DNA from: Candidatus Undinarchaeota archaeon
GTDB taxonomy: Archaea > SpSt-1190 > JASMDC01
Direction: 5' to 3'
Assembly: GCA_964519305.1 (NCBI GenBank)
Contig: CAZFHY010000007.1
Span: 83,427-147,426 of the forward strand
DNA: 64,000 nucleotides
The position numbers and the translations under genes are program-made. A model generated the notes under the pieces. That model ran no database searches and was not told where the DNA came from. It worked only from the letters and a program-made list of their open reading frames with translations. Position 1 is the first letter of the stretch. Every line of letters begins with the position of its first letter. Of this stretch, positions 5,469 to 63,137 are shown in pieces.

Positions 5469-6551
5469 GTACTTCTTCTTGAGCGCTAACCAATGGACCA
5501 TCCGTTCCTGCCACTCGTCAAGGATCGAAGGCTCCATGAGAAGGATCAGGAAATAACCATAGAAGAGCGAGAACACATGGAGGAGGTGCGCTTCGGGACG
5601 ACGCATGTTGTCCACGGTCTGTCGATATGCTTGTGTTTCGTTCCGTACCTGTGCGAGCTGCCTGTTCGCGTCCTTCACGCGAACGGATAGCTCGTGTTGT
5701 CGTTGATTGAGCTCTGTAAGCGATTCATTGACAAGGAATCGCTCGACACGGATGCCCTCTAACGTCCTGTTGACGTCCATTGTCCGCTCAATGAATTCGT
5801 CATGGGTGATAGTGCCGTTCGCTAGCGAAAGTTCCAGGAAGGTCCTGTTCTTCGTAGCCTCGTCCTCTAGCGTACCGAGACGGATGTCTGTTGTCGTCTT
5901 GATCTCGACCTCGTCCTCTACGGAACTGAGCTCGCTCTGGGTGCTCTCCACCGTAGCGGTCGCTATCCATTCGGCAGTAATGCCATCGGAAAGACGGTCG
6001 TATACACGCTCGGTGATATCGGAACGGAGGACGGGAAGAACGATGAATCCCATGACAAATAGCGCGATCAGAGACTCCCGGGGTCGGGAAACGACCCCTG
6101 CTCCGATACAGCACCAGATAAGACCTGAGGCTCCGACGAGGATCGTCTTGGGTGAGAGCGCTGCAAAGAATATACTGGACCCGATGATAGAAAGGAGGAA
6201 GAACATCGCTGCACGTCGCGGGCGGAGACGGAGCTCGAGTATGGTGCCGAACACAGCAAGGAGCCCGATGTTCATGATAAGATGGCCGGGATAGAGGTGG
6301 ATAAGAGAATATGACAGGTAAGTAAGTGGTCGTGAGATGTGAAGCCCGTAACGGGAAACGGTCTTGAGGGTCGGTGAAACGAGCAGACTACCTCCCGTGA
6401 ACCACAGATAAAGGAATACTATTGTGGCCAAGAATGAAAGGGTGACGACTGGCCAGATAGCGTCTTGAATTGTGGCCTTCTTACGATCGCCGTCGATTAC
6501 CGGTCCCTCCGCTTTTCGTGATTCCGAAGGAATCTTAAGTATTTGCACCAA
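5193..6551 (-). CDS. Rhomboid family intramembrane serine protease with a coiled-coil insertion (both ends uncertain)
   Basis: HLYPGHLIMN, catalytic GASG, AHLLH in the last TM helix; a long heptad segment precedes the His helix. Confidence 0.8.
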   Translation of the reverse strand: MVQILKIPSESRKAEGPVIDGDRKKATIQDAIWPVVTLSFLATIVFLYLWFTGGSLLVSPTLKTVSRYGLHISRPLTYLSYSLIHLYPGHLIMNIGLLAVFGTILELRLRPRRAAMFFLLSIIGSSIFFAALSPKTILVGASGLIWCCIGAGVVSRPRESLIALFVMGFIVLPVLRSDITERVYDRLSDGITAEWIATATVESTQSELSSVEDEVEIKTTTDIRLGTLEDEATKNRTFLELSLANGTITHDEFIERTMDVNRTLEGIRVERFLVNESLTELNQRQHELSVRVKDANRQLAQVRNETQAYRQTVDNMRRPEAHLLHVFSLFYGYFLILLMEPSILDEWQERMVHWLALKKKYLDGRSGTEDNDLVDVESSGPEIDDGLETGALDHRDDVVDRVSDDVPSNDLLTREPDVIRSRKLKGKDERTTGTKDSPHLIKKGRRSRKGLD

Positions 6552-7663
6552 TGGCTGAAGCGATGGACCCTGCGTTCAATGTTACAGCTGTCACGAACAC
6601 TATTACGCTCATCCAGGCTCAGTCGAATATCATACGATACCTTCTCGGAGCCGCTGTGGTGTTCCTTTCTTACATAATCTCACGGTTCGCAGGAAAGGCC
6701 CTACATAAGATTGGTACTAGGCTCGCCGAGCATACGAGCACGCGAGTTGACGATGAGCTCCTTCGTGTGAGCATCAAGCCCGTAAAGGTGTCGATAGTCA
6801 TCATCGGTTTACTTGGAGCCCTCTTCATTTCCGGGTGGGATGCCGAATCCCTCCGACTGATGACCAATCCCCTCGTCGCGATAGCTCTGATGGTGCTCGC
6901 GCGTATAGTCGTCCATACCAGCTGCGTATTCATCGAGGAGTACGGTGCTCACCTCGCCGATATGGCGGATACCACCATTGACAAGCGGTTCATACCGACG
7001 ATCCAGGCCATGCTTTCCATTGTCATATACTCTGTTGCCGGTCTTATGGCTTTCTCATCGCTCGGTGTGGACGTCACTCCCCTCGTCACGCTCGGTGGAG
7101 TCGCCGGTATCGCTGTTGCTGTCGCTTCTCAGGATACCCTTGGTAATGTTGTGGCAGGGATCATCGTCATGTACGACAAGCCTTTCGCTTCCGGGGACCT
7201 AGTTCTGCTCGGAGGTCCCGAGGGTGACGGTGGTACGGTGCTGACGGTGGGTCTCTTCAGCACTAAGGTCAGAACGTGGGATAACAACGTGATCACGTTA
7301 CCCAATTCCGACCTGTACAAGAAAGGTGCCGTCAACTACTCGTACGGTGACGAGCGCGTCCGTGTTCGCATCCCCGTGGGTGTCGCTTATGGCACCGATA
7401 TCGAAAAGGCCCGCGGTATACTGCTCGAAATTGCTAAGGAGGATGAGAGCGTGCTCGATGAACCCGAGCCCAGAGCTCTATTCCTATCATTCGGTGACTT
7501 CGCATATAACTTCGAGCTCAGGGTGTACATCAAGGACCTTATGGACATATTCAACGTGAAGGACCGCATCAATACGAACATCAAGAAGCGGTTCGACGAT
7601 GAGAAGATCGAGATACCGTTCCCGGTCAGGACCTTGCTCATGCCGAAGAATCCTATTGAGTGA
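6551..7663 (+). CDS. mscS: Small-conductance mechanosensitive channel
   Basis: GIAVAVASQDTLGNVVAG, KPFASGD, VGLFSTKVRTWD, VGVAYGTD, IEIPFP; start may be ATG 6563. Confidence 0.93.
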   Translation: MAEAMDPAFNVTAVTNTITLIQAQSNIIRYLLGAAVVFLSYIISRFAGKALHKIGTRLAEHTSTRVDDELLRVSIKPVKVSIVIIGLLGALFISGWDAESLRLMTNPLVAIALMVLARIVVHTSCVFIEEYGAHLADMADTTIDKRFIPTIQAMLSIVIYSVAGLMAFSSLGVDVTPLVTLGGVAGIAVAVASQDTLGNVVAGIIVMYDKPFASGDLVLLGGPEGDGGTVLTVGLFSTKVRTWDNNVITLPNSDLYKKGAVNYSYGDERVRVRIPVGVAYGTDIEKARGILLEIAKEDESVLDEPEPRALFLSFGDFAYNFELRVYIKDLMDIFNVKDRINTNIKKRFDDEKIEIPFPVRTLLMPKNPIE

Positions 7664-11392: not shown

Positions 11393-14300
11393 TCATTGCG
11401 ACTGTCCGTCCCAACCTTGGGCAGTCTCTGTTCCACGTGCCTCACCCGTCATGTACCTATATCCATAGTAGGATGACACTGCAGGCCTATCCGTGTAAGG
11501 ACTGGGTGCGGTGGACGTGGAAGTGACGGGAGCTACCGGCGCGACCGTTCGTGGTGTGAGTTCCCTGAAGACGACCCTGGCACCGAGCACTAGAACGATA
11601 AAGATGGCTAATCCGATGACGGCCAGACCGGGGATGTTCTTCCCGGTGATGAGATCCCACAGGAAGCTCTCCTGAATCGCCCTGAGGAGCTGGTTGCTCG
11701 AGCCGAATTTTATCGTCACGTGCCCTCCGGAAGTGGCGAGTTCGGGGAACGTCTCCGATGTTACCACGATGTCGATATCAGCGGTCCCGGCGCTGGACAG
11801 GAACGTGAGAGGGAGGAGGAACGCATGCTTGCCATTCGGTTTAATGGTCGGTACCTGTACCTCGGTGAAACCAAGACGAGCATTGACTGTATTGATACGC
11901 ACGAAGTAACTATCCGGTACATTGCCCAGGTTAGTGATCTGGACAGGGACGTCTATCACAGGTGTGTCCATCACATCGTAGCTGCCCATGACGTCGATGG
12001 AGACAGAGCACGTGCAATCATCGCTCCCCGCGCAGGATTCGCCGATAGCGGTATCGCACACACCGTTAGCGCAGAAGATGGGTGCACAATCCCTTGAACA
12101 GAAGCTGCATTCATGCGCAGCGCATATCCCGTCCCCGCAACCGGCCTTGCACAGCTCCTCATAGGCATCGCACACCTTACCATCAAGACACCCACAGTCC
12201 TGGCAACAGTTATCCTCGTTCTCCGTGGGTCTATCACATACACTATCTCCGCACCACACGCCAACGCATCCTGTCGAATCGGCGTCGGTCCTGTGTGGAT
12301 CACAGACGTGAAGAGGACCGTCGCATGCGCACCCAGGACCTGTACGGCAATCCTCGATAAGGGTATTGCACCTTTTGACGGTCGGACAGCCGTCCCTGCG
12401 ATTGGGATCACGAGGACAATCTTCGTCAGTGTCCGGTACGCCATCGCCATCGATATCACGTCGGCATGTACCCTGAGAGCATGTGTGGAGCGGGCCATAT
12501 GTGCTCGTGCACTCGGAATTCGCAGTGCAGGGAACGCAAAGGCCGCGTTCGCAGACCTGGCCTTGTTCCTGACATACCTTGATATTGGTGACGACGCAAC
12601 GCTCGCTCACGCATGAGAACTTCAGGACGAGTGATCCGAGGCACGCAGTGGGGCACTCTTCGTCCTTCAGGCACGGGAATCCCTTTCGCTGCGGATCCGG
12701 ATCTATTTGGTCCGGGATGTTGTCATCGTCCATATCGGACACGCATCCGCCTTCGTCCGCATGGTCGCTCCACGGATCGCAAACGCTTCCCTCAGAACAC
12801 CTACAATCGGGACACCAGAGACAGTTCTCACCAGCATCCTTCCTGCACACGCCATCGATACATGTCTGGACACACCGCTCCTCGATACATGTATGCCCAA
12901 GGCCGTAGTCGATGGTGCAGACAACATCCGAGTCACAGCCCGAGCATCCGCTCGTCGTGCATATGGTGCCATCCTTGCAGGTATAATCCACACCCTTCTT
13001 GCAGAGGAAGTCCTCGCATACGAACGGGACGAACACGTTGTCCTCGCACAGGTTCGGACAGTTATCGTTGTTCGTACAGTTGAGTACCCGGCAGGCTCCA
13101 CTGACAGGTTCGCATTGCTTGCCTTGACCATACTGGGCCGCGCATGCCTCGGTCGATGTACAAGCCATGCACCCTTCCTTCTCGCAGACGAGATATGAAT
13201 CAGAACATTCACGGTTACGTCTCTCGCAAGAACCGCCGATGCAGGCGTAACCGATATGCAAGGTCCCATCACATTTGTTGTACCGGGAGCAGTCCCCATC
13301 GTTCAGGCATGGACCGCAGGAGCCTGCACGGCAGAAGAGCATTTCAGTTGAACAATCCCGAGTTCCTGCATCTACGCAGGCACCATCAGTGCAATCCTTG
13401 AGCAGGGCGGTGTTATCGTCACATGATCCCGGGCACTTCAACGTGTCGATGCACACGCCTGTTAGGGAACACGATCCGAGACCACCCTCGGTGCAACATG
13501 TAGCGTTCTCCGGTCCGCATCGCCATGAACCACCGACGCAACGAACGGATTCAGTGCATGGCCCAGTGCCACACTTCGCGTAAGGAGGGATGCCCCCGAG
13601 CTTGTCGCCTAGACTGACGCATTGACCGTCACAGCAATAACCGGTCGAGTCCAAGGTGTCGCAGGGTGCACCTTCGGGTCCGCACGCATCCTTACACAGA
13701 CCGTCAGCACAGAAGTGCAGGTCACAATCTGCTTGGGTGATGCAAGGACGAGCTGCTCTGCAGGTACCTGATGCACAGATCCCTGAGGCGCACTGGCAGT
13801 CGAGAAGGCATGATCCGCTGTCAGGAACACCTCCCGCTACGGCACAGGCCTTCTCCACACAGCAGTCCGAAGCACAGGTCTCCGGATTGAGACAGAACCC
13901 AGCGAGGTCCCGAAGACAGGTCCGCTTGCGGTTATTGCATTTTAGTCCTTGATCACATGCGCAATCATCCGTACAGGAACCATCGAGACCGACGGATCCC
14001 TTGACGGTACACACTTCCTTCGATGCGCACCCTGACGCGCATTCAGCGTGGCCAGTGGCATTCGTGCCCAGCTCCCTCAGGCATGACCCATCAGTGCATT
14101 CGAGCCCGCTGATGCAGTCGTTGTCGATGATGCATTGCTGAGCTAGCGTTTGGTCACCGCGTTCCCTGCAGGTGCTTCCTTTGCAGACACCGGAACTGCA
14201 CTGGTCGGCAGAGTCGCACTCTACTCCGACCTTTTTGAGACATTTACCTCCTGTACATCCCATTGTGAGGCTGCACTGGCAGTCATTTGAGCAGGTCTCG

Positions 14301-16630
14301 TTGAGGGTGACCGTTTCCCTCGGTACGCATGTAGCGGTTGCGCAGCATGAGGTCGCACAGTCGTTATCGAGGGAGCATGAACCGCCGGTCTTTGCTAGAC
14401 AGAGTCCGGACTCATCGGTTATGAACTCCTTGACGCAGGAGTGTCCCGTACCGCATTCGCAGGTCTCCCTGCACGGGTCCCCTGACGTGACCGAATCCTT
14501 GGGTACGCACCTGGCGTTCGCGCAACATCCTGAAGCGCACTCGGTCGTGAACGTGCATGCCCGGCCAAGGCCGCTCCTGCACAGTCCTTCTGCACACGTT
14601 AGCCCACCTTCGCACTGGCATGTTCCACTGCATACGTCACCAAGGGCAACAGCCAGGGATCCAAGGCAAAGACCGTTAGCGCAACAGCCAGACGTACACT
14701 GCTCATCGTCTTGGCATGATGCCCCGTCTTCCCTTTTACAGATCCCGGGGTCCTTGCACGAGAGCGTCGACGCGCACTGGCAATCGGTCTCGCACGGTCC
14801 ATCAAAGACCATTGTCGTACCACAGGCACCTCCACAACAGCGTCCGAGAGCCCCGTCATCAGTTATGCAGATTGCACCCGTGTTATCCGTGCACCATCCG
14901 CACTCGCTCGGTGTACCGCTACCTAGCCTGTCGATACATGTCGTCTGATATCGACAATCATCGGAGTCCGAACAATCGTCGGAGCAGATCCCGTTCGTAC
15001 ACGGGTACGGGCCGCATGACTTTCCGTTCCCGCAAGAACCTCCGGAGCAAGTACCCCTGCTCCCGGGGCCATCGCAGCAGTAGCCGCCCTCGCTCGAACA
15101 GACCAAGTTGCTCCCGCACACGACCTTACCTGAGCACGAGCCTGAACCACACGTGTCGTCTGAGTTGAGAAGATGATCGCCATTGTTGTCGGTCAGAGGG
15201 GTGGACCGGCACTCACCGTCACAACAGTAGCCAGTACCGGTCGAGACGTCGCAGCGTGCACCATCGACCTTGCACGTGTCACAAACATCAAGGGAACCGT
15301 CAGCGTTAACGTCGATGCATGCATATGACGCACTACAGCCTGACGAGGATGTACAACCTTTCTTGCATGCCTTCTTCCCTGCTTCCAATGAGATGCATTT
15401 GAAACCGGACGCGCAGTCACCGTCCGTTATGCAGGACACACTGCATGAACCGGCCATGCAGATGTTCGGGTCGCATGCATGTACCCCACTGTCTGCAGTG
15501 CACTCCCCTGTAGCATCGCATCCATAGAGGTTGTCGCCAGCACCGCAACACGGCTTGCCCTTGGACGCGCATTCCCAAGCCGGGCCTCCAGGGGCATCAG
15601 TGATGCATTCATATGCGGAGATGCACTGCCCGGAGCCACAACCATCCACGCCCGAGTCGAGGACATCGTTGCCGTTCACGTCGACGACTGATCCGGGGAC
15701 TATAGCGCACTCATCACCGCAGCATCGTCCTGTACGGCCTTGCTCATCCTTGCATGTCGCGCCCGGATTGTCCTCGCATGATGAGCACACAAGGTCGGCA
15801 CCATCAACGGTCGTAATGCAGTCAGCGTCGCCGGAAGGGTGACAGTCGCTTGCATCAGAGCATGCTCGTTCTATGACGAGCTCGGGACCGATAGGGCTAG
15901 TGGTGAGCATGTTGACTCCGGTGAAGGGTGCTGAATCGACAGCGACACATTCACCACCCGCCGTTGAGCAAGGAAGGTCTGGTAGCGATGGCCAAGTGTA
16001 GTAATGCGTGGGTTTGAACGCCTCGACGTGGAAAAGGATGGTCAGCCATCCAGACCTGTGTGCGAACGCGACGGCATCCGATACATCACGTTCGATAAGA
16101 CAACTATCTCCAGAACAGTCAGTTCCCGCGTCACCAAGGGAGTAGTCGTTGCACGCTTCACGGACGTTGGGGATATTGCATGATCCGAAGGAGCAGTAAT
16201 AGAGCGTTACCTTACCTTCGGGAGAACAGATGCCATTCTCAGCTTCAGCACAGGCATGGTGGAGCTTGAGGACCGCAGAACTGAACGGAGTCTGACCAGA
16301 TATCTGGAACGCGATAACCGCTCCATTGTTCAACGGCTCAAGAGGATCCTGGCAACAACCGACATCTTCGATCATATCCTCCCTGCATGGCTTGTCATCC
16401 AGCTCACGACAGCATCCGCCAAGGGACTTGCCGGGGATACATCCTGCATGGCGATAGGTCTGGCGGACGGCAACTCGAGCGAAATCGGCATCAATGTCGA
16501 CAGCACCTTCCGTGCTTACCGACCCCGTGCACAACGGACCGATAGTGGCCCCTGAAGAGAGCACAAGAAGGAGGATGAGCGCACAGGAACAGGCCCGTAT
16601 CCTTCCCCTGGGCGCTCCCATCGCTATCAA
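11393..16630 (-). CDS. Giant (1745 aa) Cys-rich membrane-anchored surface protein
   Basis: Signal peptide, dozens of C-x4-5-C-x3-CC repeats, DxDxDG Ca-binding loops, CGDG repeats, Ig-like domain (ITNLGNVPDSY), C-terminal TM and cytoplasmic tail. Confidence 0.9.
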   Translation of the reverse strand: MIAMGAPRGRIRACSCALILLLVLSSGATIGPLCTGSVSTEGAVDIDADFARVAVRQTYRHAGCIPGKSLGGCCRELDDKPCREDMIEDVGCCQDPLEPLNNGAVIAFQISGQTPFSSAVLKLHHACAEAENGICSPEGKVTLYYCSFGSCNIPNVREACNDYSLGDAGTDCSGDSCLIERDVSDAVAFAHRSGWLTILFHVEAFKPTHYYTWPSLPDLPCSTAGGECVAVDSAPFTGVNMLTTSPIGPELVIERACSDASDCHPSGDADCITTVDGADLVCSSCEDNPGATCKDEQGRTGRCCGDECAIVPGSVVDVNGNDVLDSGVDGCGSGQCISAYECITDAPGGPAWECASKGKPCCGAGDNLYGCDATGECTADSGVHACDPNICMAGSCSVSCITDGDCASGFKCISLEAGKKACKKGCTSSSGCSASYACIDVNADGSLDVCDTCKVDGARCDVSTGTGYCCDGECRSTPLTDNNGDHLLNSDDTCGSGSCSGKVVCGSNLVCSSEGGYCCDGPGSRGTCSGGSCGNGKSCGPYPCTNGICSDDCSDSDDCRYQTTCIDRLGSGTPSECGWCTDNTGAICITDDGALGRCCGGACGTTMVFDGPCETDCQCASTLSCKDPGICKREDGASCQDDEQCTSGCCANGLCLGSLAVALGDVCSGTCQCEGGLTCAEGLCRSGLGRACTFTTECASGCCANARCVPKDSVTSGDPCRETCECGTGHSCVKEFITDESGLCLAKTGGSCSLDNDCATSCCATATCVPRETVTLNETCSNDCQCSLTMGCTGGKCLKKVGVECDSADQCSSGVCKGSTCRERGDQTLAQQCIIDNDCISGLECTDGSCLRELGTNATGHAECASGCASKEVCTVKGSVGLDGSCTDDCACDQGLKCNNRKRTCLRDLAGFCLNPETCASDCCVEKACAVAGGVPDSGSCLLDCQCASGICASGTCRAARPCITQADCDLHFCADGLCKDACGPEGAPCDTLDSTGYCCDGQCVSLGDKLGGIPPYAKCGTGPCTESVRCVGGSWRCGPENATCCTEGGLGSCSLTGVCIDTLKCPGSCDDNTALLKDCTDGACVDAGTRDCSTEMLFCRAGSCGPCLNDGDCSRYNKCDGTLHIGYACIGGSCERRNRECSDSYLVCEKEGCMACTSTEACAAQYGQGKQCEPVSGACRVLNCTNNDNCPNLCEDNVFVPFVCEDFLCKKGVDYTCKDGTICTTSGCSGCDSDVVCTIDYGLGHTCIEERCVQTCIDGVCRKDAGENCLWCPDCRCSEGSVCDPWSDHADEGGCVSDMDDDNIPDQIDPDPQRKGFPCLKDEECPTACLGSLVLKFSCVSERCVVTNIKVCQEQGQVCERGLCVPCTANSECTSTYGPLHTCSQGTCRRDIDGDGVPDTDEDCPRDPNRRDGCPTVKRCNTLIEDCRTGPGCACDGPLHVCDPHRTDADSTGCVGVWCGDSVCDRPTENEDNCCQDCGCLDGKVCDAYEELCKAGCGDGICAAHECSFCSRDCAPIFCANGVCDTAIGESCAGSDDCTCSVSIDVMGSYDVMDTPVIDVPVQITNLGNVPDSYFVRINTVNARLGFTEVQVPTIKPNGKHAFLLPLTFLSSAGTADIDIVVTSETFPELATSGGHVTIKFGSSNQLLRAIQESFLWDLITGKNIPGLAVIGLAIFIVLVLGARVVFRELTPRTVAPVAPVTSTSTAPSPYTDRPAVSSYYGYRYMTGEARGTETAQGWDGQSQ

Positions 16631-18673: not shown

Positions 18674-19819
18674 TCATGGGTCCCGGTCGTCTTCGCTCCC
18701 GGCCTCGCCTTTAACTTCTCGTTCCATCCTCTCATGGTCCTCTTTCGTGATATCTAGAGACTTCCTGAGCGTCTCGAGCATCTTCCTCTCCTTCTTCGTG
18801 ATAATGCCATCATCCCATGCTATCGAAAGCTCAGTGCGATATAGCTCGGCCTTGTCATCGTGATTCTTTAAAGAGGAAAGTCCGACTTTCGGGAGGAGCT
18901 TGTCGGTGAGGTTCTGGCTCACTGACCGGGCCGGGACAGAGAGCATTACGACGAATCCCGCGGAAACCAGGTTGGACAGGTGCATATCAGCGAACACTGT
19001 CGTTGAGACGACATCCTCCATGAGCTCCTGGACGACGAAGAACGCGATGGTGAGGATGCTCGTCATCATACCGTAGAGCACGCTCTTGCGGACGATGATA
19101 TCAATATCGAACAGACGCTCCTTGACTATTCCGTACGCGATGAAACCGAACGAGATAGGCAATGCCATGAGCACGGGATTGATACTGGGGGATGTGTTGA
19201 ACATGAATCGATAGACCAACAGGGCGAACGATGTGATGAACGCAACGAACGAGGCGAGCACGAAGTACGCGGAGCGACGTCTAAGTTCGATGTCATCTCG
19301 CTGCCTGAACATACGAAAGAACGTCGAGAACAGCAGGGTAAGCATGATAGGGACGTAAATGAAGGAGAACAACCTCAGTGGTGAATCGAGACGAGGTGAG
19401 AACGCGCCGAACGAAGCATCTCCGCCCTGGACCACATCTCCTATGACCACATCGGGTGCAAGGACCATGGATATGGCAGCAATGGTGGGAAGGATGTAGA
19501 CAGCAAGGTATCTCCTGTGTTTGAGGACCACCCCCTTCTCCCAGAATGCGAACGAGAAGTGAAGGAACGCAGAGACCGAAAAGACGTCCGCGATTAGGTA
19601 CACACCGAACCACCGTTTCCAAGTGGAGAGTTCCCGGCTGCAGACGAGCATCGCGGCGGATAGGCTGATAAGGGCTGCCAGGAAGAGCGCGAGCACGAAG
19701 AGCCTGACATATCCCTCTTCCCGCTTCTTCTTCAGCAGGAACGCACCCAAGAGAGTGCAGACTATGAAAGGGATGATGTAAATTATCGCCCGGGGATCGA
19801 ACACGTATGCTGTCATCAT
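18674..19819 (-). CDS. Multi-pass membrane protein: HisKA-7TM-like sensor region with a TerB-like C-terminal helix pair and no kinase domain
   Basis: About 9 hydrophobic helices, FLHFSFAF, AYGIVKERLFDID, C-terminal AWDDGIITKKERKML. Confidence 0.75.
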   Translation of the reverse strand: MMTAYVFDPRAIIYIIPFIVCTLLGAFLLKKKREEGYVRLFVLALFLAALISLSAAMLVCSRELSTWKRWFGVYLIADVFSVSAFLHFSFAFWEKGVVLKHRRYLAVYILPTIAAISMVLAPDVVIGDVVQGGDASFGAFSPRLDSPLRLFSFIYVPIMLTLLFSTFFRMFRQRDDIELRRRSAYFVLASFVAFITSFALLVYRFMFNTSPSINPVLMALPISFGFIAYGIVKERLFDIDIIVRKSVLYGMMTSILTIAFFVVQELMEDVVSTTVFADMHLSNLVSAGFVVMLSVPARSVSQNLTDKLLPKVGLSSLKNHDDKAELYRTELSIAWDDGIITKKERKMLETLRKSLDITKEDHERMEREVKGEAGSEDDRDP

Positions 19820-19851: not shown

Positions 19852-20832
19852 TTACCTGTACCGTTCTACTGCGGACAATAGAACCGCCTGGATGAGCTGC
19901 TGATAGTCCTTACCTAGCGTACTCCAAGCATCGTAGTACGAACCGCTCTGGTGAATGGCGGCCATGGAGTTGAGCTCGAGTATCCATGGATTGCCGTCAT
20001 CATCAATTCTGAAGTCAACGCGAGCACAATCCCTGCACCCGAGCGCCTTAAAGGCAGCGACGGTGAGGTCCCGTACTTTCCCGGTCAGCTCGTCGGACAT
20101 ACGTGCTGGGCACACGTGGCTTGCGACACGGTCACGCTTGGTCTCGAACGAGAGGATGCGTGACGTCCCTTTCATGTTACCGAAGTCGATCTCGAGCACA
20201 GGGAGCGCCTTGGGAGGATCGTTACCGAGTACACCACAGTTGACCTCCATGCCGGAGATGAACCGCTCTACAAGGGCAGGTTGCTGGAACTCATCGATGA
20301 TAGCAGCAACAGCCTTCCGTAGGCTCGTCTCGTCCTCGACGACCTGTATCCCGAAGCTCGTGGACTCCATCTTGGGCTTTACGATGAGCGGGAAGATGAG
20401 CCCCTCCGTCAACGTATCATCAGGTGTATTGAAGAGCTGGAACGCGGGGGTAGGTAATCCGGCGCTCCTGAGAACTACCTTTGCCAGGTACTTGTCGAGC
20501 GCGATAGTGTGCGCTCTGGGTCCGGAGCAGACATATGGGATACCGGCCAGTTCGAGTATCGATGGTATGTGGGTGTACCTGCATTCGCCCTGGACGCCAT
20601 AGGCGAGGTTGAACACCATGAGGTCAGCAGGATCATCAAGGGAGGAAAGGAGGTTCTCCAGACGAGGGATCAGGTCCACGTCACCTTCGAGCACCGTTAC
20701 GTCGTGCCCGCCGGCGCTCAAGGCATTCTTGACCGCTTCGATATCCTCCTCTTTGTAGTACTCCTTGTTCTGCATTCCCAGCTGGCGAAGCCGTCGTGCC
20801 TCGGGCGTATTTCGGACGATTGCGATGTGCAT
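19852..20832 (-). CDS. ATP-grasp ligase, D-Ala-D-Ala ligase-like
   Basis: LELAGIPY, ALDKYLAK, FPLIVKP-ESTSFGI, LVERFISG-E, ARVDFRID, ILELNS; GAGGTGA RBS before ATG 20832. Confidence 0.9.
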   Translation of the reverse strand: MHIAIVRNTPEARRLRQLGMQNKEYYKEEDIEAVKNALSAGGHDVTVLEGDVDLIPRLENLLSSLDDPADLMVFNLAYGVQGECRYTHIPSILELAGIPYVCSGPRAHTIALDKYLAKVVLRSAGLPTPAFQLFNTPDDTLTEGLIFPLIVKPKMESTSFGIQVVEDETSLRKAVAAIIDEFQQPALVERFISGMEVNCGVLGNDPPKALPVLEIDFGNMKGTSRILSFETKRDRVASHVCPARMSDELTGKVRDLTVAAFKALGCRDCARVDFRIDDDGNPWILELNSMAAIHQSGSYYDAWSTLGKDYQQLIQAVLLSAVERYR

Positions 20833-20848
20833 AGGGTTCACCTCAAGG

Positions 20849-22048
20849 TCAGTTCGTTCTTTCGTACGAAACATATGTAGCGAGCAATGTCGCGGTGAGC
20901 ATGGAGCGCTGTATGAGCGAAGGCAAGTATAGACGTTCCTGCGGCGTGTGGTCGTCGAAGCCGATGGGGCCAAGACCGTCCAGCGTGGGAACACCGGATG
21001 ATCCGAACCAGCTCGAGTCCGCGGTGCCGGTACGACGTTCTTTCTGAACGTTCTGTTTTAGAGCTGCGGCCACGGACTGGATCCTATCGAGGAGGTAGCC
21101 CGTCCCTTCGTTCTCTGGCCAGGCTGGACGGAAGCTCGTGACCTTGAGCGAATTCTGGGCGCCGCTCACGGTCGGGATCGCACTGATCTGCTCCATGTCC
21201 TCCTTGATAGCTCTCTCGGATGCGGGATCCCAGAACCAGATGTCCACCAGGGCGGTCGCAGAGGATGGGACCGTGTTCCTGGCCTCACCTCCCCATGCTC
21301 GTCCCACGTTAAAGGCAGTTCCTGGATACTTCTTGTTAAGACCTTCAACCGCGATGATCTTGTGGGAGAGCTCTTCCAGAGCACTGGTCTTGAACGATTG
21401 GAGCAATCCTGCGTGAAAAGGTACTCCTTGTACATCCAGCTGGTAAGCGAGCTTGGCACGTCGCGAGACGACGACCTCTCCGTTAGGGCCTCCGCACTCG
21501 AAGTAGAGGGCAAACTCAGTGTTCCGGGCCAAGGGTTTGAAGAGAGGACGTGATGTGGTCGCTGCACGTTCCTCGTCACTGTTCAGCACGACTGTGATGG
21601 CCAGCCCGTCCATGAGTCCCGCGGCCTTGAGAGATTCTAAGGCTGCGAGCATGACGACGATCCCACCTTTCATATCGCTCGTACCGGGGCCGATCGCATA
21701 CTCTCCATTTATCGTGAAGGCGGGAAGGCGAGTGTAGTCCGTGTAGGTTGTGTCGGTGTGCCCTCCGAGAACGATCTGCTTACCGGCCATCCCGTTCGTA
21801 GCTACGAGATGGTCACCGAAACCACGGGCAGAATGACGTCTTACGGTCATCCCAAGGGCCTGAAGTCGCTGCTCGATGATCTCGTTTACCTTCTGAACAC
21901 CTTCGACCATCTCGGACCCGCATGGTATATCGACGAGTCTCTTGAGCGTCTCGATATGACGTTGTTGGTCATTCTCGAGCGTTGTGACGAGCTTTCCTAC
22001 TACCGATTGCGGAACGGTGATGATATCCTGTTCGGTCATGGACTTCAC
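20849..22048 (-). CDS. M20 family metallopeptidase (glutamate carboxypeptidase-like)
   Basis: GHTDT, GTSDMKGG, NSDEE, FECG, HAG, GTADS, DGLGP, HTPQE. Confidence 0.9.
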   Translation of the reverse strand: MKSMTEQDIITVPQSVVGKLVTTLENDQQRHIETLKRLVDIPCGSEMVEGVQKVNEIIEQRLQALGMTVRRHSARGFGDHLVATNGMAGKQIVLGGHTDTTYTDYTRLPAFTINGEYAIGPGTSDMKGGIVVMLAALESLKAAGLMDGLAITVVLNSDEERAATTSRPLFKPLARNTEFALYFECGGPNGEVVVSRRAKLAYQLDVQGVPFHAGLLQSFKTSALEELSHKIIAVEGLNKKYPGTAFNVGRAWGGEARNTVPSSATALVDIWFWDPASERAIKEDMEQISAIPTVSGAQNSLKVTSFRPAWPENEGTGYLLDRIQSVAAALKQNVQKERRTGTADSSWFGSSGVPTLDGLGPIGFDDHTPQERLYLPSLIQRSMLTATLLATYVSYERTN

Positions 22049-23364
22049 TCACGAATGTAATCCGGGTCACGCTTCTCATCATCGTAGTCCATAACAAGAC
22101 CTTGCCACGAGCGGAACCTTGCCTTGCCGTTGGCGTTGATGTTCAACAGGTAGTTGGGCATTACGGGTGTCTTGCCCCTGCCCATGGGCAGCGTGCAGAT
22201 GTAGGTGGGCACAGCGAGACCTGATGTGTAGTTACGCAGGTACTCCATGATGTTGTACCCGTCCTGAATGCTCGGCCTGAAATGCCGGATGCCCTCGAGC
22301 ATCTTGCAGTTGAAGATGTAGTACGGTCTGACTTTGACCGTCAGGAGCTCCTGGCACAACTTCTTCATTACATGGCGGTCGGTGTTGATGCCCCGCAGGA
22401 GAACGCTCTGGTTCCCGAGCAGGATACCAGCACGAGTGAGCTTATCGCACGCCTCGGCGACCTCGTTGGTGATCTCTTTTGGATGGTTGTACTGTGTGTT
22501 GAGGTAGAGCGGATCGTGCGTGGAGAGCATCTCGCACAGGTCGTCGGTGACCCGCATGGGGAGCACACAAGGCATCCGGCTCCCTAGACGCTTGATCTCA
22601 ACGTGAGGGATGGCATCCAGTTCACCGAGGATCCAATCGAGCCTATCGTTCGTGAGAGCGAACGCGTCACCACCGGTGATGAGAACGTCCCTTATCTCTT
22701 CGTGCTCCTTGACGTAATCCAGGGCCATTGAGATGTCCTTCTTCGAATAGAGAAGGTTCTCGTGGCTTATGTGTCGACGCCTGAGACAGTGGCGACAGAA
22801 CATCGCACAGGCGTTAGTGACGTTGATGATGAGCCGGTCAGGATAGAGTCGGGTTGTGAGCGGGGCCGGTGAGTTGTACAGGACGGTCTCGGGGTCCTTC
22901 TCGACGGTCGTATCCAGTACCTCATTCACTATCGGAACGCTCTGCATCCGTACGGGACACTTACGGTCCTTCCTATCCATGAGACTGGCGTAGTATGGTG
23001 AGACGCCCCAGCGGTACATCTCTTCTACATCTTTGATATGGCCCTGTTCCTCCGTGGTGAGCTCGATGATACGGGCGAGCTGGTCCACGCTCCTTATGGT
23101 GTTGCGCAGATGCCATCGCCAGTCCTTCCAGTCATCGTTCGTCCCACCGAGCACATCGAGGATGAGCTTCTTGTTCTTCTCGTACTCGGCCGCGAGCTTT
23201 CTGCCGGTCGGGATCGAGTCCTTGACCGCCAGATAGTCGGCAATGGACTCCTTGTACGACTCACATCGTTCGAGGGCATACTTACGCTTCTCGGGAGTGA
23301 TGTGGAGCATGGTCTTCTCAACGGGTACGAAAGTCGAATCGGAGGTATCGTCCTTTTTCACCAT
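22045..23364 (-). CDS. eam: KamA family radical SAM aminomutase, glutamate 2,3-aminomutase (Eam)-like
   Basis: CAMFCRHC, YPDRLIINVTN, RDVLITGGD, NQSVLL, PLP-Lys in GRGKTP; Eam-type N-terminal extension (ALERC..YK..I.DYL); no C-terminal Zn cysteines. Confidence 0.85.
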   Translation of the reverse strand: MVKKDDTSDSTFVPVEKTMLHITPEKRKYALERCESYKESIADYLAVKDSIPTGRKLAAEYEKNKKLILDVLGGTNDDWKDWRWHLRNTIRSVDQLARIIELTTEEQGHIKDVEEMYRWGVSPYYASLMDRKDRKCPVRMQSVPIVNEVLDTTVEKDPETVLYNSPAPLTTRLYPDRLIINVTNACAMFCRHCLRRRHISHENLLYSKKDISMALDYVKEHEEIRDVLITGGDAFALTNDRLDWILGELDAIPHVEIKRLGSRMPCVLPMRVTDDLCEMLSTHDPLYLNTQYNHPKEITNEVAEACDKLTRAGILLGNQSVLLRGINTDRHVMKKLCQELLTVKVRPYYIFNCKMLEGIRHFRPSIQDGYNIMEYLRNYTSGLAVPTYICTLPMGRGKTPVMPNYLLNINANGKARFRSWQGLVMDYDDEKRDPDYIRE

Positions 23365-23465
23365 CAGCGTTACACCGTGCCGTTGGCCTGTGACTCAGGC
23401 CTGATGGGGACCTTGAGACATAGCGTGGTATAAAAGGTTGTCGTTGGTGCCCTGAGCACGGTGGC

Positions 23466-24353: not shown

Positions 24354-25778
24354 ATGCCCATGACGCTCGACGTTGCCGTCATCAATCCTCCGCCACCCAC
24401 ACAGAACTGCATCTCCAAAGAGGGCAGGTGCGCGGGGAGGGGATTCCTGCCCCTCATCCATCTTACTCCGTTATCGCTCCTCTATCCGGCAGCGGTCATC
24501 GAGGCCCAGGGGCATAATGTCAGCGTGCATGACGGCGTAGCCTCCGGACCGTTACCGATCGATGCTATCGATGCGGACCTCGTTCTCGTGAACATATCGC
24601 CCGCATCGTACACCATGGACATGGAGTTCGTCAAAACGGTGAAGGAACAGAGGAAGGATACTCTTGTCGCGGCCCTGGGCACGCTCGCCACATCAAGGCC
24701 GGACCGTATTCTGGCCGATGGTGCAGACATGGTGCTCCGCGGAGAGATCGAGTCGACCGTCGCCGAGGTCACACGACGGCTCGTGAGCGGACGAAAGCTG
24801 GTTGGAGTGCCCGGCCTGTCCATCCGTTCCGGTGGTAGGATAGTGCACGGCGGTGATGCGGTGCGTCCGGACCTTGATGCCCTCCCCTACCCTGCACGAC
24901 ATCTCATCGAACGGGACAACTACCGGTTCCTCTTCACGGGTGACATAACCACTTCGATTCTCACTGGACGAGGTTGTCCGCACCGATGCACGTTCTGTGC
25001 CTCGAGCATCATCAACGGTACTCGGACGCGTGACAGGGACCCAAGGTCGATCGTCGAGGAGATCAGGTACGTGCATGAACACGATGGTACGAACCACTTC
25101 ATCCTGTATTCCGATACGTTCAATGCCTCACGAAGGTTCGTCCTCGATCTGTGCGATGAACTCCTACGCGAGGACATGGACATCGAATGGGCCTGCAACA
25201 GCAGAGCTGATGGTCTTGATGACGAAGTACTGGAGCGAATGTCACGTGCGGGTTGCAGGCATGTAACGATCGGGGCCGAGTCAGGGTCCGATGAGATACT
25301 GAAGCGTGCGTGCAAGGGAGAGACCACGGCCATGGTCCATGATGCCGTAGAAGCGTGCTCACGTGCCGGTATCGATGCGTTGGTGTACTTCATATTAGGT
25401 CTTCCCGGAGAGACACGTCAAACAGTACAGGAGACCCTGGACTTCGCAGCATCTCTGAGTACGGACTACGTCATGTTCTCAACGGCGACACCGTACATCG
25501 GGACACCATTCGCGAAAGAGGTCGGCTTCGACAACGACGACCTCGATCTACAGCGTGACGAGGTCAATGCGATCGTGGACTCGGACGCCATCGGGATAAC
25601 TCCCCAAGAGATCCAGGAAGCGGTCAAGGAGTCTTACATCAGGTTCTATATGAGACCGAACACCGTAGCGAACCATGCATCACGCATAGTCCGAAGCCCG
25701 AAGATGCTCGGTACGACCGTCACAACAGCTGCGGGTATGGCGCGGTACATACTTGGTATGGACGTGTCCGATGAGTGA
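24354..25778 (+). CDS. B12-binding-domain radical SAM protein (HpnJ/BchE-like)
   Basis: RGEIE, LDALPYPARHL, GRGCPHRCTFC, GAESG, FILGLPGET. Confidence 0.9.
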   Translation: MPMTLDVAVINPPPPTQNCISKEGRCAGRGFLPLIHLTPLSLLYPAAVIEAQGHNVSVHDGVASGPLPIDAIDADLVLVNISPASYTMDMEFVKTVKEQRKDTLVAALGTLATSRPDRILADGADMVLRGEIESTVAEVTRRLVSGRKLVGVPGLSIRSGGRIVHGGDAVRPDLDALPYPARHLIERDNYRFLFTGDITTSILTGRGCPHRCTFCASSIINGTRTRDRDPRSIVEEIRYVHEHDGTNHFILYSDTFNASRRFVLDLCDELLREDMDIEWACNSRADGLDDEVLERMSRAGCRHVTIGAESGSDEILKRACKGETTAMVHDAVEACSRAGIDALVYFILGLPGETRQTVQETLDFAASLSTDYVMFSTATPYIGTPFAKEVGFDNDDLDLQRDEVNAIVDSDAIGITPQEIQEAVKESYIRFYMRPNTVANHASRIVRSPKMLGTTVTTAAGMARYILGMDVSDE

Positions 25779-27063: not shown

Positions 27064-27181
27064 TCCCGCCGCCCGGATTTGAACTGGGGACATCCTGGTT
27101 GCTGTACGAACACCGGCTACCAGCAAGCACCCGTGGTGCTCGCCTACAGCCAGGCGCTCTGCCAGACTGAGCTACGGCGGG
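27064..27181 (-). tRNA. tRNA-Tyr(GTA) with a 44-nt intron at 37/38 (intron 27100..27143)
   Basis: Acceptor CCCGCCG/CGGCGGG plus A73 (C1:G72 archaeal identity), anticodon arm CCTGG-CTGTAG|A-CCAGG, TTCAAAT loop; CTGT/ACAG BHB central helix; one A-C mismatch in the T stem; TATA-like TTTTTTAAA upstream. Confidence 0.95.
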
Positions 27182-43349: not shown

Positions 43350-44621
43350 CTAGACCCGGTCGGGCCGGTCCTGGAGAAGATCTACCATGTCGTAGACGAC
43401 GCAATCCCAGGCGAGCGGTTTCGCGCCCCCGCCTTTGCCGTTCTCCGGATTGTAGTGCTCCCACCAGTCGTTCTCTTTCACAAGGTCGACGGTCTTATGT
43501 GCGACCTCCTTTGCGAGGTCCGTCCTTCCCTGGTTCTCAAGGCCTTTCATGACGAACCAGTTGACGTTCAGCCAGACATTCCCACGCCAGTAAGTGTCTG
43601 GATCGTAACTATCGTTGTCCATAGAGGTCGTGGATATGCCGTACTGTGCCCAGAACTCTTTGGTGTTCGTTAGATGCTCGTCTATCATCTTTGAGTAGTC
43701 GAACTTCCTATCAAGGAGCATCGGGTAGAACATCGCGGCCGACTTAACAGGCGAGAGTGTTCCATCTGAAAGAATGTCGCAGAACTTGTCACCATCGTAC
43801 ATCGTGTTGAAGATGGCGTCCGTTGTCTTTGCTGACTGCTTCTCGAGCCATGTAGCATCCCTTCCGATCTCTTTGCTCAGGCTAGCGAGGATCTTCACGT
43901 TCTTTGCGTAGAGCACGTTGAAGTCAACGGGCTTAACTTCGAAGCTACCGTTTGCCAGTATCTTCTTCTCGTTCCATCCCTGCTCCTGGCACTCCTTGAA
44001 GATGCGCATCTTGTGCTCTCCTATCTCTTCACGAGTACCTTCGGTCACACCGTAGGTCGAGTCCCACCTTTGTGAGTTGTCCCAGCCGCTCTCCCAGGAA
44101 TGATAGATCGATAGAAGCTCGTCACCGTCCGGGTCCCTGACGTCCTTGAGGTGCTTGTAGTAGTTCTCCAACTGGGGGAGGACCTCTTTAAGGAACTCCT
44201 TGTCACCCGTGCGAGCGTAGATGCGTTCTACGGCCATAGCGATGATGGGGGGTTGGACCATGTCGGAATGATAGGGTGAGGACCAGTACTCGTCCACGAG
44301 GTCCTTGAAGCCTTCGGGTACCTCCTGTCCATCACCATTGAAGTAGTTCATGTGAGGGATGAACCCGTCAGCACGCTGGTTCGCCAGCATGGACCGGACC
44401 TCTTCCTTGGCTACACCGGGCTCTCTTTCAGCAAGCACATAAGCATGGAAGCAGGAGTCCCAGAACCATTGCCGACCGACATAGCCCTCGTGGTTCACAC
44501 TGGGGGTCGTGAACGTGTGGCCATCGACGGTGACACGCTGCTCTGTGAGCAACCTGTATGCTGATTCCTTGACTTGCTCAAGGTCCCCATCAGTAGGGCA
44601 AGTGGTGTAATCCAACTGCAT
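43350..44621 (-). CDS. GH63/MGH1-like glycoside hydrolase (mannosyl-/glucosylglycerate hydrolase or trehalase-like)
   Basis: QWFWDSCFHA, QPP, HSWESGWDNS, YWRGNVW, EHYNP.G.G.G...W; start set at ATG 44621. Confidence 0.88.
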   Translation of the reverse strand: MQLDYTTCPTDGDLEQVKESAYRLLTEQRVTVDGHTFTTPSVNHEGYVGRQWFWDSCFHAYVLAEREPGVAKEEVRSMLANQRADGFIPHMNYFNGDGQEVPEGFKDLVDEYWSSPYHSDMVQPPIIAMAVERIYARTGDKEFLKEVLPQLENYYKHLKDVRDPDGDELLSIYHSWESGWDNSQRWDSTYGVTEGTREEIGEHKMRIFKECQEQGWNEKKILANGSFEVKPVDFNVLYAKNVKILASLSKEIGRDATWLEKQSAKTTDAIFNTMYDGDKFCDILSDGTLSPVKSAAMFYPMLLDRKFDYSKMIDEHLTNTKEFWAQYGISTTSMDNDSYDPDTYWRGNVWLNVNWFVMKGLENQGRTDLAKEVAHKTVDLVKENDWWEHYNPENGKGGGAKPLAWDCVVYDMVDLLQDRPDRV

Positions 44622-44741
44622 AACCGACTGTCCCCAGTTATCCCTCTGTGAGGGATGCCAAAATACGCGGATCAGGCTGCTTATATAGTTTTCTCCAACT
44701 TTCGATGGACGAGGGTCCTCTCTTGACATAAGGGCTTCAAT

Positions 44742-44763
44742 GTTACTACTGTATAATAGTAAC
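44742..44763. promoter_or_regulatory. Palindromic operator, copy 1
   Basis: GTTACTACTGTATAATAGTAAC (extends to ATGTTACTA-N8-TAGTAACAT) directly before ATATATAAA. Confidence 0.7.
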
Positions 44764-44817
44764 ATATATAAAGCTGGAGAACAATAATACTATCAGTCGT
44801 TCTCGCCTGGTGTTCTC

Positions 44818-52271: not shown

Positions 52272-53189
52272 ATGGTGAACAGCGAAACGGCCATACAGAA
52301 CCTGACTGAGAGCATCGCTGAACCAGTCGACCTGCTTACGAAGCTCCGCATGGAGCTCATCCACACCTACTATGGACCGTTCGTTCTCTCAGGAATCGTG
52401 CTAGCGCTGACCCTCATCGTCATCCGGTATGCGGGTAAGTTCCTGCGCTACCTCAGAACACGCCTGGATATGGACAATGTCATCATCGAGAGCTTTCTCT
52501 CGGATTACATCACCCGCGATGATTTCGACAAGGTCTACCGCTCCATTATCCAGCTGACCGAGCTGTCGATATTCTTCATAGGTTTCTCTGCTGTGATGGG
52601 TATTTTCCAGCTGACGTTCATCGGGGAGCTCTTCGACAAGCTCAATGTCTACCTTCTTCGGATAGTCCTGACCGTCACCATAATCATCTTCGGGATATTC
52701 ATGGGCGAGGTCTTACCGAACATCCTCCCGATATGGCTCATCATCCTTCCGATGCAGGCGATCGAGCGCCAATATAGGATAAAGCTCGATCTCATGAAGG
52801 TGACAGGATACCTCATACGAGGCATCGTCTATTTCCTGAGCATGCTCCTGATCGGTGCAATCCTGGGCGTGTCCGGCGATGCAATCGCGCTGGTGGTCTT
52901 TCTTGTCATCGCCTTCGGTATGGTGCTGTTCGTGTTCCTCATCAAGGACCAGCTCCCCAACGCATTTGCTGGGGTCTACCTCACGGCGACCGATTCGATA
53001 AACATCGGCGACACGATCGTACTCGACGACAATGTGAAAGGCGTCATCAAGAGCATATCACTGCTACATACAACGCTCGAGGGGAAGAAGGGCACATTGT
53101 ACATAATCCCGAACCGCTCTCTTACCAGCACGATAATCGCGGTCACTAAACGTTGTGACAGCGAAAAAGCAACGTGCAAAGAAGAGTGA
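52272..53189 (+). CDS. MscS family protein (short, archaeal type)
   Basis: Multiple TMs, KDQLPNAFAG, INIGDTI, GVIKSISLLHT, IPN. Confidence 0.85.
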   Translation: MVNSETAIQNLTESIAEPVDLLTKLRMELIHTYYGPFVLSGIVLALTLIVIRYAGKFLRYLRTRLDMDNVIIESFLSDYITRDDFDKVYRSIIQLTELSIFFIGFSAVMGIFQLTFIGELFDKLNVYLLRIVLTVTIIIFGIFMGEVLPNILPIWLIILPMQAIERQYRIKLDLMKVTGYLIRGIVYFLSMLLIGAILGVSGDAIALVVFLVIAFGMVLFVFLIKDQLPNAFAGVYLTATDSINIGDTIVLDDNVKGVIKSISLLHTTLEGKKGTLYIIPNRSLTSTIIAVTKRCDSEKATCKEE

Positions 53190-57680: not shown

Positions 57681-58016
57681 TCAACCGAGTTTGTCTTCAA
57701 GAGAATTCAATCTTCCATCAAGCTCTATCAACCCACGTTCGAGCCTTTCCTCGAGCTCTTTAACATCCCCTGTATCAATGGGAGGGATATCTGTGGGTGT
57801 CGGTGTAGGTACGGGCGTGACACCACCATCAGTGTCGAGCATATATCCGATAGCGATGATCAATGCAATGAGCCCAAAGAGCATCATTATGTTCCGGCTG
57901 TCCTCGCTCATCGGCTTTGGGGGAGGTACATCATCCTTGTGGATGACATCGCGGAGCTCTTTCACCTCGAGCTCCTCTGGATCGATCTCAAGGATAGCCA
58001 TCATACCCACCTCCAT
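57681..58016 (-). CDS. Small membrane protein with PT linker and coiled coil
   Basis: TM helix, PVPTPTPT, acidic heptads; overlaps the end of the upstream giant gene. Confidence 0.75.
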   Translation of the reverse strand: MEVGMMAILEIDPEELEVKELRDVIHKDDVPPPKPMSEDSRNIMMLFGLIALIIAIGYMLDTDGGVTPVPTPTPTDIPPIDTGDVKELEERLERGLIELDGRLNSLEDKLG

Positions 58017-63079: not shown

Positions 63080-63137
63080 TAGCCCTCCCACTACGGAAGA
63101 AGGGCGCGGGGTGTTTTATAGTTTGCGCCGATGAAAC

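Follow-up and report, generated by a model that had tools for sequence, protein, structure and literature searches.

Why should a radical S-adenosylmethionine (SAM) aminomutase of the KamA family share a tight operon with an M20 peptidase and an ATP-grasp ligase? The question is raised by a stretch of 64,000 nucleotides (nt) of contig CAZFHY010000007.1 from a Candidatus Undinarchaeota archaeon, called the window below, in which genes for aRF1 and a geranylgeranyl reductase mark the host as archaeal. Coordinates are positions in this window, and loci of clade A, the group to which its aminomutase belongs, and of other relatives are designated by L numbers. Three open reading frames (ORFs) of the same orientation succeed one another on the minus strand: an aminomutase of the radical SAM and pyridoxal 5'-phosphate (PLP) type resembling glutamate 2,3-aminomutase (Eam; 22045-23364, 439 amino acids (aa), ATG start), a predicted M20 metallo-amidohydrolase similar to carboxypeptidase G2 (CPG2; 20849-22048, 399 aa, GTG start at 22048), and a putative ATP-grasp carboxylate-amine ligase with the fold of D-alanine-D-alanine ligase (Ddl), from an uncharacterised subfamily (19852-20832, 326 aa). 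The answer leaned towards here, with slightly more confidence than doubt, is that the aminomutase would make beta-glutamate or a close acidic beta-amino acid, that the ligase would build this compound into a small amide or dipeptide, and that the M20 enzyme would hydrolyse the product.

The three genes are closely packed. The GTG start of the M20 gene overlaps the TGA stop of the aminomutase gene (22047-22045) by 4 nt in the sequence GTGA, an in-frame ATG at 22039 being an alternative start. The ligase ORF is listed as 19852-20994, and the ATG at 20832, which shortens the protein to 326 aa, stands 16 nt past the M20 stop and has a GAGGTGA ribosome-binding site 5 nt upstream. The tight coupling that a first-pass annotation of this DNA had read from the GTGA overlap and from the 16-nt gap with its GAGGTGA is thus confirmed on the sequence at both junctions.

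Relatives were gathered by scanning one genome per prokaryotic species, the best 80 of 225 loci being kept. Twenty of them (L001-L018, L038, and L080; 56-95% identical) display the motif FNCK...T and constitute clade A, and 60 (46-55% identical; Bacillota, Thermotogota, and others by record label) display FH[AC]K...N and are referred to as classical. Partner genes were counted by tblastn of the window proteins against the 80 loci, by Pfam and NCBIfam scans of the neighbours, and by follow-up blasts. An ATP-grasp gene adjoins the aminomutase gene in all 20 clade-A loci, which come from other genomes than that of the window. It is of the Ddl-like type in 16 of them and is replaced in L004, L005, L006, and L038 by an unrelated ATP-grasp_3-type protein of 453-507 aa. 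It lies downstream of the aminomutase in the window, L002, and L001, and usually upstream in bacteria. Seventeen of the 20 loci also possess an M20 gene, that of L038 belonging to the ArgE/DapE type and not to the CPG2 type; L005 retains a 151-aa remnant, L012 lacks the gene, and the L001 contig stops too early to show it. No tblastn match (E <= 1e-5) to this ligase or this M20 protein was obtained in any of the 60 classical loci, of which 39 are flanked by 3 kb or more on each side. The trio suspected in the first pass is therefore conserved elsewhere, and the recurrence of this linkage of functions in other genomes shows that its arrangement is not due to chance. Indeed, the roles are kept even where the gene families are swapped, as the ATP-grasp_3 and ArgE/DapE substitutes illustrate. 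Thirteen of the closest metagenomic homologues of the ligase share longest-contig sizes (e.g. 112108 and 387104) with close homologues of the aminomutase, circumstantial evidence that suggests further co-located pairs.

The aminomutase and its clade

The aminomutase is composed of Radical_SAM and LAM_C Pfam domains, and its CX3CX2C cluster motif reads CAMFCRHC. To our knowledge, few specificities have been established in the KamA family, namely those for lysine, arginine, and glutamate. The protein passes the cut-off of the KamA subfamily model TIGR00238 (313.8 versus 199.2 bits), and its best NCBIfam model is the Eam model TIGR04368, with 577.5 bits for an equivalog cut-off of 650. It fails the models of lysine aminomutase (TIGR03820, 430 versus 525 bits) and EpmB (203 versus 369 bits), as well as that of arginine aminomutase, on which it scores lower than on Eam.

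A phmmer alignment to lysine 2,3-aminomutase 2A5H (E 7e-103), ungapped in the specificity blocks, places Lys354 of the motif YIFNCK opposite Asp293 and Thr391 of the motif YICTLP opposite Asp330, while Lys398 aligns with the PLP lysine Lys337. The Asp/Asp pair of lysine 2,3-aminomutase, AblA, and EpmB is thus replaced by Lys/Thr, and the claim that an Eam-like enzyme here carries these two residues at its specificity positions is upheld. Glutamate 2,3-aminomutase of Clostridioides difficile was reportedly described by Ruzicka and Frey in 2007. Lys at the Asp293 position is the residue expected of an Eam; at the Asp330 position, according to the part of the SFLD account that is available (PMC3965090), Asn is conserved throughout Eam and tied to glutamate binding.

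The same division runs through the 80 loci. Lys occupies the Asp293 position in 20/20 clade-A loci, judged from sequence context, and in 60/60 classical ones, whereas the Asp330 position holds Thr in 20/20 clade-A loci, again by context, and Asn in 60/60 classical loci. For L018, the position read-out gives 'R', in conflict with its own FNCK context, and this is taken as an alignment artefact. The TIGR04368 scores separate the groups as well: besides the window protein, L007 reaches 593.5 bits and five more clade-A genes 572-601 bits, compared with 693, 702, and 706 bits for classical genes.

Two trees were computed, neither of which has bootstrap support values. The first, obtained with FastTree, comprises 100 rows: the window, the 20 clade-A loci, 20 of the 60 classical loci (every third), five extra paralogues, and 54 of 150 library representatives, with anchors labelled through an NCBIfam scan of 80 of the 150. 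The second results from a quick IQ-TREE search under a mixture model on 42 of these rows. Clade A forms one branch at support 100 in both (21/100 and 10/42 rows, respectively) and is nested in a Lys-bearing Eam superclade at support 99 with FastTree and 95-97 with IQ-TREE. The Asp/Asp lysine-aminomutase anchors stand apart from clade A in both trees, and in the FastTree one the lysine- and arginine-aminomutase anchors, bearing Asp/Asp or other residues, are placed elsewhere than clade A. The phylogeny called for by the first-pass annotation therefore groups the enzyme with Eam and not with lysine or arginine aminomutases, EpmB being set aside by the scores.

Clade A thus shares with Eam its fold, its cofactor motifs, and the Lys at the Asp293 position, but differs from it by a Thr in place of the conserved Asn and by seven more changes. 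The eight differences are consistent between the 21 clade-A and 20 classical rows: His85 for Gln, Asn164 for Thr, Leu173 for Arg, Leu194 for Gln, Asn352 for His, Cys353 for Ala, Ile359 for Thr, and Thr391 for Asn. Several of these positions lie beside the cluster motif and the specificity motifs, and the changes go mostly toward smaller or less polar residues. A further difference lies in the surroundings, as the clade-A aminomutase always adjoins an ATP-grasp ligase, whereas the 60 classical loci examined are without it.

The ligase, the peptidase, and their fusions

The ligase carries a Dala_Dala_lig_C Pfam domain, with weak matches to TTL (E 8.7e-6) and RimK (E 1e-3). It fails both Ddl models, scoring 164.1 versus 243 bits on NF002378 and 156.6 versus 245.65 bits on TIGR01205. 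Alignments to Ddl structures of the PDB begin at residues 52-79 of the ligase, and the PDB Ddl match spans residues 72-325. The N-terminal 70 residues do not align by sequence; in Ddl, this region presumably holds the Gly-rich/Glu motif for the first substrate. An AlphaFold (AF2) model built with 80 homologues (predicted local distance difference test, pLDDT, 95) nevertheless displays the complete three-domain Ddl fold, with template modelling (TM) scores of 0.78-0.83 and 21-28% identity to DdlA and DdlB. In a Foldseek search with this model, each of the top 50 matches listed is either a Ddl or a D-Ala-D-Lac ligase (TM 0.70-0.83). The residues for ATP/Mg and the acyl phosphate, common to Ddl and this ligase, are invariant across 100 homologues (K152, E189, E196, R271, D273, E286, and N288). 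Arg85, in a QGxxRYTH loop, and Arg275 are invariant in the family and extra to Ddl, the Ddl/VanA alignments having a gap and a Leu at these positions, respectively. Lying near the substrate sites, the two arginines would suit an acidic substrate. Arg233 had also been considered as a specificity residue, in replacement of the omega-loop Tyr of Ddl, and was dropped, as only Lys232 is conserved in the family.

Five trio-bearing bacterial genomes were searched, and each contains exactly one orthologue of the ligase, adjoining the aminomutase, in addition to weaker Ddl-like matches. Two of the latter were scanned: L091 passes the Ddl cut-offs (342 and 314 bits), and L090 fails them (150 bits) and belongs to the L093 cassette discussed below. 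On these comparisons the ligase is not a housekeeping Ddl, because it falls below the Ddl cut-offs, its host is an archaeon, and the carrier bacteria have a second Ddl-like gene. That the Ddl-like ligase is distinct from the standard enzyme had been one of the starting suppositions, and it gains from the separate true Ddl, L091, in a trio-bearing genome. An ESM Atlas search with the ligase returned generic 'D-alanine--D-alanine ligase family' clusters only. Among 151 sampled genomes of the phylum of L003, a strong match was found in one, that of L003 itself. Six others contain matches 35-39% identical; the two that were fetched (L094 and L095) have no aminomutase nearby and are distant paralogues, uninformative on true orthologues.

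The M20 protein comprises Peptidase_M20 and M20_dimer domains (E 4.9e-11), and its best solved relative is carboxypeptidase G2 (1CG2, E 4e-41). The five metal ligands, the catalytic Glu, and the Arg of an RPA motif are intact (H97, D125, E159/E160, E184, and H367 for the metal and catalytic residues), and these metal, catalytic, and Arg residues are invariant in 14 orthologues. The protein should thus be an active binuclear-metal amidohydrolase. It keeps the metal ligands, catalytic Glu, and dimerisation domain of CPG2 but scores 212.6 versus 349 bits on the glutamate carboxypeptidase model NF004788, and its context is a cytoplasmic operon with an aminomutase. By curated scores, the enzymes of the cassette lie outside the Eam, Ddl, and CPG2 equivalog families.

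An unusual architecture was identified in L003 (2648-4798, minus strand), in which the ligase is fused to an M20-like domain within a protein of 716 aa, a separate M20 gene still following the aminomutase. A search with the C-terminal part of this fusion yielded 612 proteins; of the 120 listed, 109 have a length of 700 aa or more, in line with the ~716-aa architecture. Of 16 ligase homologues that are longer than usual, 10 also begin an M20-like extension. All 60 fused domains aligned have lost four metal ligands: the bridging Asp is replaced by Ile/Thr/Val, one Glu ligand by Gly and the other by Arg, and the second His by Tyr, whereas the first His and Asp, the Glu that serves as general base, and the Arg are preserved. 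Two more fusions have a longest-contig size in common with aminomutase homologues, one at 43001, whose cluster is identical to the L003 fusion, and one at 9297. The ligase family has repeatedly recruited a peptidase domain with a dead metal site, most simply as a binding module. The fusion thus illustrates how a ligase can take up a pseudoenzyme.

The proposed pathway and its rivals

Domain identity and gene linkage are the observed basis of the pathway, and everything past them is inferred. In a first step, the clade-A aminomutase, with SAM, a [4Fe-4S] cluster, and PLP, would by homology shift the amino group of an acidic amino acid from the alpha carbon to C3. The most likely substrate is L-glutamate, giving beta-glutamate, and a close analogue is possible as the pocket is remodelled. 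The Ddl-fold ATP-grasp enzyme, judging from its fold and linkage, would then activate a carboxylate as an acyl phosphate and join it to an amine to give a compound resembling a beta-amino-acid dipeptide. Finally, this compound would be turned over or recycled by the CPG2-like binuclear-metal M20 enzyme, which would cleave its amide, probably at a bond of the N-acyl-(beta-)glutamate type. This scheme is supported because catalytic motifs are intact in all three proteins, clade A is monophyletic, and the ligase (20/20) and M20 (17/20) linkage of its loci is absent from classical ones (0/60). The distinction of the ligase from Ddl, its fusions to M20-like domains, and, circumstantially, the shared contig sizes point the same way, and the other recurring neighbours, namely a GltP-like Na/dicarboxylate symporter in four loci, a universal stress protein in three, and a fused TRAP permease in two, are consistent with a glutamate or stress context. 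The three points on which the first-pass annotation had staked its proposal came out in its favour: the enzyme is not of the lysine-aminomutase or EpmB kind, the ligase is not a standard Ddl, and the trio recurs in other genomes.

The leading guess for the role of the product is a compatible solute or a nitrogen or charge store in marine anaerobes, the osmolyte role being only hinted at. As far as the available portions of the sources go, beta-glutamate is abundant in the subsurface ocean (PMC8269262), and eam is listed among the osmoprotectant genes under Na+ riboswitches (PMC9337991). Literature searches, outside which most subscription journals lay, found no description of a cassette of aminomutase, ATP-grasp, and M20 genes or of a beta-glutamate ligase, in agreement with the earlier remark that no product had been described for such a trio.

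Similar logics are found in better-known systems. The AblA/AblB pathway to N-epsilon-acetyl-beta-lysine, a methanogen osmolyte as cited in the accessible text of PMC9337991, also has a KamA-family aminomutase feeding an amide-forming neighbour. The present cassette differs by its Lys/Thr instead of Asp/Asp pocket, by an ATP-grasp ligase instead of a GNAT acetyltransferase, and by the inclusion of a hydrolase. No GNAT gene was found by Pfam scan in the operon of the window; one occurs only in a separate, lysine-type cassette of the genome of L009 (L093:5542-9492, minus strand), where a lysine-type KamA (YLYQCD/YVIDAP, Asp/Asp) is followed by two tandem Ddl-like ligases and the GNAT gene. This arrangement supports a general rule whereby aminomutase products feed Ddl-like ligases. 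The N-acetylglutaminylglutamine amide (NAGGN) dipeptide osmolyte system comprises the Ngg ligase, AsnO, and a peptidase. It resembles the cassette in that an ATP-grasp-containing ligase makes an osmolyte dipeptide and that the cluster also encodes a peptidase, but it has no aminomutase or beta-amino acid, and its ligase and peptidase come from different families. Carnosinase, like the hydrolase of the cassette, is a member of the M20 family. With carnosine synthase (ATPGD1, an ATP-grasp enzyme), it forms a pair, named in PMC3407494, that is likened to the cassette by logic and not by relatedness, a beta-amino acid being ligated and the dipeptide hydrolysed as proposed here. The animal enzymes of this pair are not gene neighbours; their ATP-grasp subfamily differs from the Ddl-fold one seen here, and their beta-amino acid, beta-alanine, is made by other routes.

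Several observations weigh against the beta-glutamate pathway. Thr391 stands in place of the Asn that defines Eam, the score of the aminomutase stays below the Eam cut-off (577.5 versus 650 bits), and the seven clade-specific changes besides Thr391 add to the doubt about glutamate as the substrate. Moreover, six of the 20 clade-A loci carry, right after the M20 gene, a second KamA paralogue of ~600 aa with the Lys/Asn pair (L007:3953-5767, L012:7432-9255, L014:8616-10412, L038:3920-5722, and equivalents in L016 and L017). This paralogue has a ~190-aa N-terminal extension without Pfam match and its own long branch in the trees, and it could be the real glutamate mutase. The M20 gene is dispensable, given its absence from L012 and the remnant in L005. 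The fused M20-like domains argue for binding and not for hydrolysis, since their metal ligands are lost, and the check for an adjacent aminomutase covers, among the fusions, L003 alone. Which of the ligase and hydrolase steps comes first, and in which direction each runs, is guesswork. Finally, an Rfam scan found no riboswitch upstream of the cassette in the window or in the 16 clade-A loci scanned (all but L002, L015, L016, and L017), its matches being tRNAs only.

Part of this evidence can be read differently if the ligase acts first. The ATP-grasp enzyme would then make a side-chain-linked dipeptide (e.g. gamma-glutamyl or beta-aspartyl), the aminomutase would work on it with Lys354 binding the distal carboxylate, and the M20 enzyme would release the product. 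LysX and LysK are a precedent for such an attach-modify-release logic. The changes of the pocket to smaller or less polar residues (Asn to Thr, His to Asn, Thr to Ile, Gln to Leu, and Arg to Leu), with the Lys kept, would fit a bulkier acidic substrate, and the substitute ATP-grasp proteins of L004 and L038 are weakly similar to the gamma-glutamyl dipeptide ligase BesA (E 1e-7 to 9e-11, well short of its cut-off). However, the BesA similarity is faint, the tightly packed operon contains no carrier or extra tailoring gene, and ATP would be spent merely to yield a free beta-amino acid. This route is considered unlikely.

Salvage of environmental beta-glutamate or of its peptides, with the M20 enzyme freeing the amino acid and a reversible aminomutase converting it to L-glutamate, is somewhat less probable still. 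It would suit a compound that becomes more abundant in deeper ocean particles and attains 730 mM in Nitrosopumilus maritimus (PMC8269262). DNA of the window is matched in marine and seawater metagenomes (eight DNA datasets from two studies, all of them possible sources of the window DNA itself, and no RNA dataset among those listed). Transporter genes of the GltP-like and TRAP kinds adjoin some cassettes. Nevertheless, the operon of the window has no transporter, and salvage leaves no role for an ATP-consuming ligase, which is yet the most constant partner (20/20 loci).

Equally improbable is the tagging of a macromolecule, in which the ligase would attach the beta-amino acid to the C-terminus of a protein or to a component of the envelope, in the style of RimK or tubulin-tyrosine ligase, and the M20 enzyme would trim it. 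The weak TTL and RimK matches of the ligase point in this direction. CPG2-type enzymes are able to remove C-terminal glutamate, and the dead M20 domain of the fusions, which keeps its carboxylate-binding Arg in 60/60 sequences, could be a recognition module. Against this, the fold and the best sequence matches of the ligase are those of Ddl, a small-molecule ligase, and no candidate target gene is conserved beside the cassette. An ordinary Eam adjoining unrelated peptidase and ligase genes by chance, suggested by the best NCBIfam match, is scarcely credible, as the genes are translationally coupled and the linkage counts (20/20 and 17/20 clade-A loci across several phyla versus 0/60 classical loci) already contradict it.

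Surroundings, distribution, and significance

The region 5' of the aminomutase gene (23365-23465, minus strand) contains a box-like TTTTATA element at about 23428-23434 and a GGTG 9 nt before the ATG, and it is presumed to be the archaeal promoter and leader of the operon. A sigma-70 and terminator scan, ill-suited to an archaeon, gave counts at chance level. A possible fourth cistron begins 32 nt downstream of the ligase stop (18674-19819, minus strand) and encodes a seven-transmembrane (7TM) protein with a HisKA_7TM N-terminal region and without a kinase domain. This gene is probably outside the conserved module, as L002, of the same genus, is the only one of the 20 clade-A loci to keep it (83% identity).

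Two B12-binding radical SAM proteins are encoded in the window (24354-25778, plus strand, and 53197-54666, minus strand). The first is HpnJ-like (219 bits for a 578-bit cut-off); its gene lies on the opposite strand, two genes upstream of the cassette, with which it is kept in the same genus only. Genes for solute handling that do not adjoin the cassette include two for MscS-type mechanosensitive channels (6551-7663 and 52272-53189, both plus strand) and one for a mannosylglycerate-hydrolase-like glycosidase (43350-44765, minus strand). Two giant ORFs of 1745 and 1696 aa (11393-16630 and 58001-63091, both minus strand) have no Pfam match at E <= 1e-6. An Rfam tRNA match over 118 nt (27064-27181, minus strand, 50.1 bits) probably represents an archaeal tRNA with an intron, since ARAGORN, run with default settings, detects no tRNA at this place.

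The host genome (3.63 Mb in 42 contigs) has only one KamA-family gene over the family cut-off. In the GTDB phylum of the host, the aminomutase was found in two of 17 genomes, both in the genus of the window. The closest locus, L002, is 95% identical and labelled as a Candidatus Undinarchaeales archaeon, and the next relative, 70% identical, is labelled as Planctomycetota; clade-A loci span several phyla by their record labels. The cassette is thus patchy, and horizontal transfer is likely. It looks acquired and not like an archaeal trait, because it is confined to one genus within the phylum and its nearest relatives are labelled as bacterial metagenome-assembled genomes. The framing of beta-glutamate as an archaeal osmolyte, with which the first-pass annotation had begun, is not supported by this distribution. 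As regards genome size, the same-genus genome has ~3.8 Mb and the other 15 genomes of the phylum 0.6-1.2 Mb, so that the genome of the host would be unusually large for its group.

A broader form of the beta-glutamate pathway is tentatively put forward, with rather less confidence than the pathway itself. Clade A may represent a new substrate class of radical SAM aminomutase and, with its obligatory ATP-grasp partner and the M20 hydrolase, may constitute a common and horizontally disseminated route, in anaerobes of several phyla, to a beta-amino-acid dipeptide that has yet to be described and would be the microbial equivalent of carnosine, the ~716-aa fusions using their dead peptidase for substrate recognition. 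As a sequence-defined subfamily with a changed pocket and fixed partners, clade A offers a ready starting point in the search for a novel radical SAM reaction or small metabolite. For the host, the cassette marks a gene gain in an archaeon of ~3.6 Mb, against 0.6-1.2 Mb in the other genera of the phylum. Beta-glutamate being a major and poorly understood solute of the dark ocean, a pathway that ligates or recycles it would matter for the flow of carbon and nitrogen in the sea.

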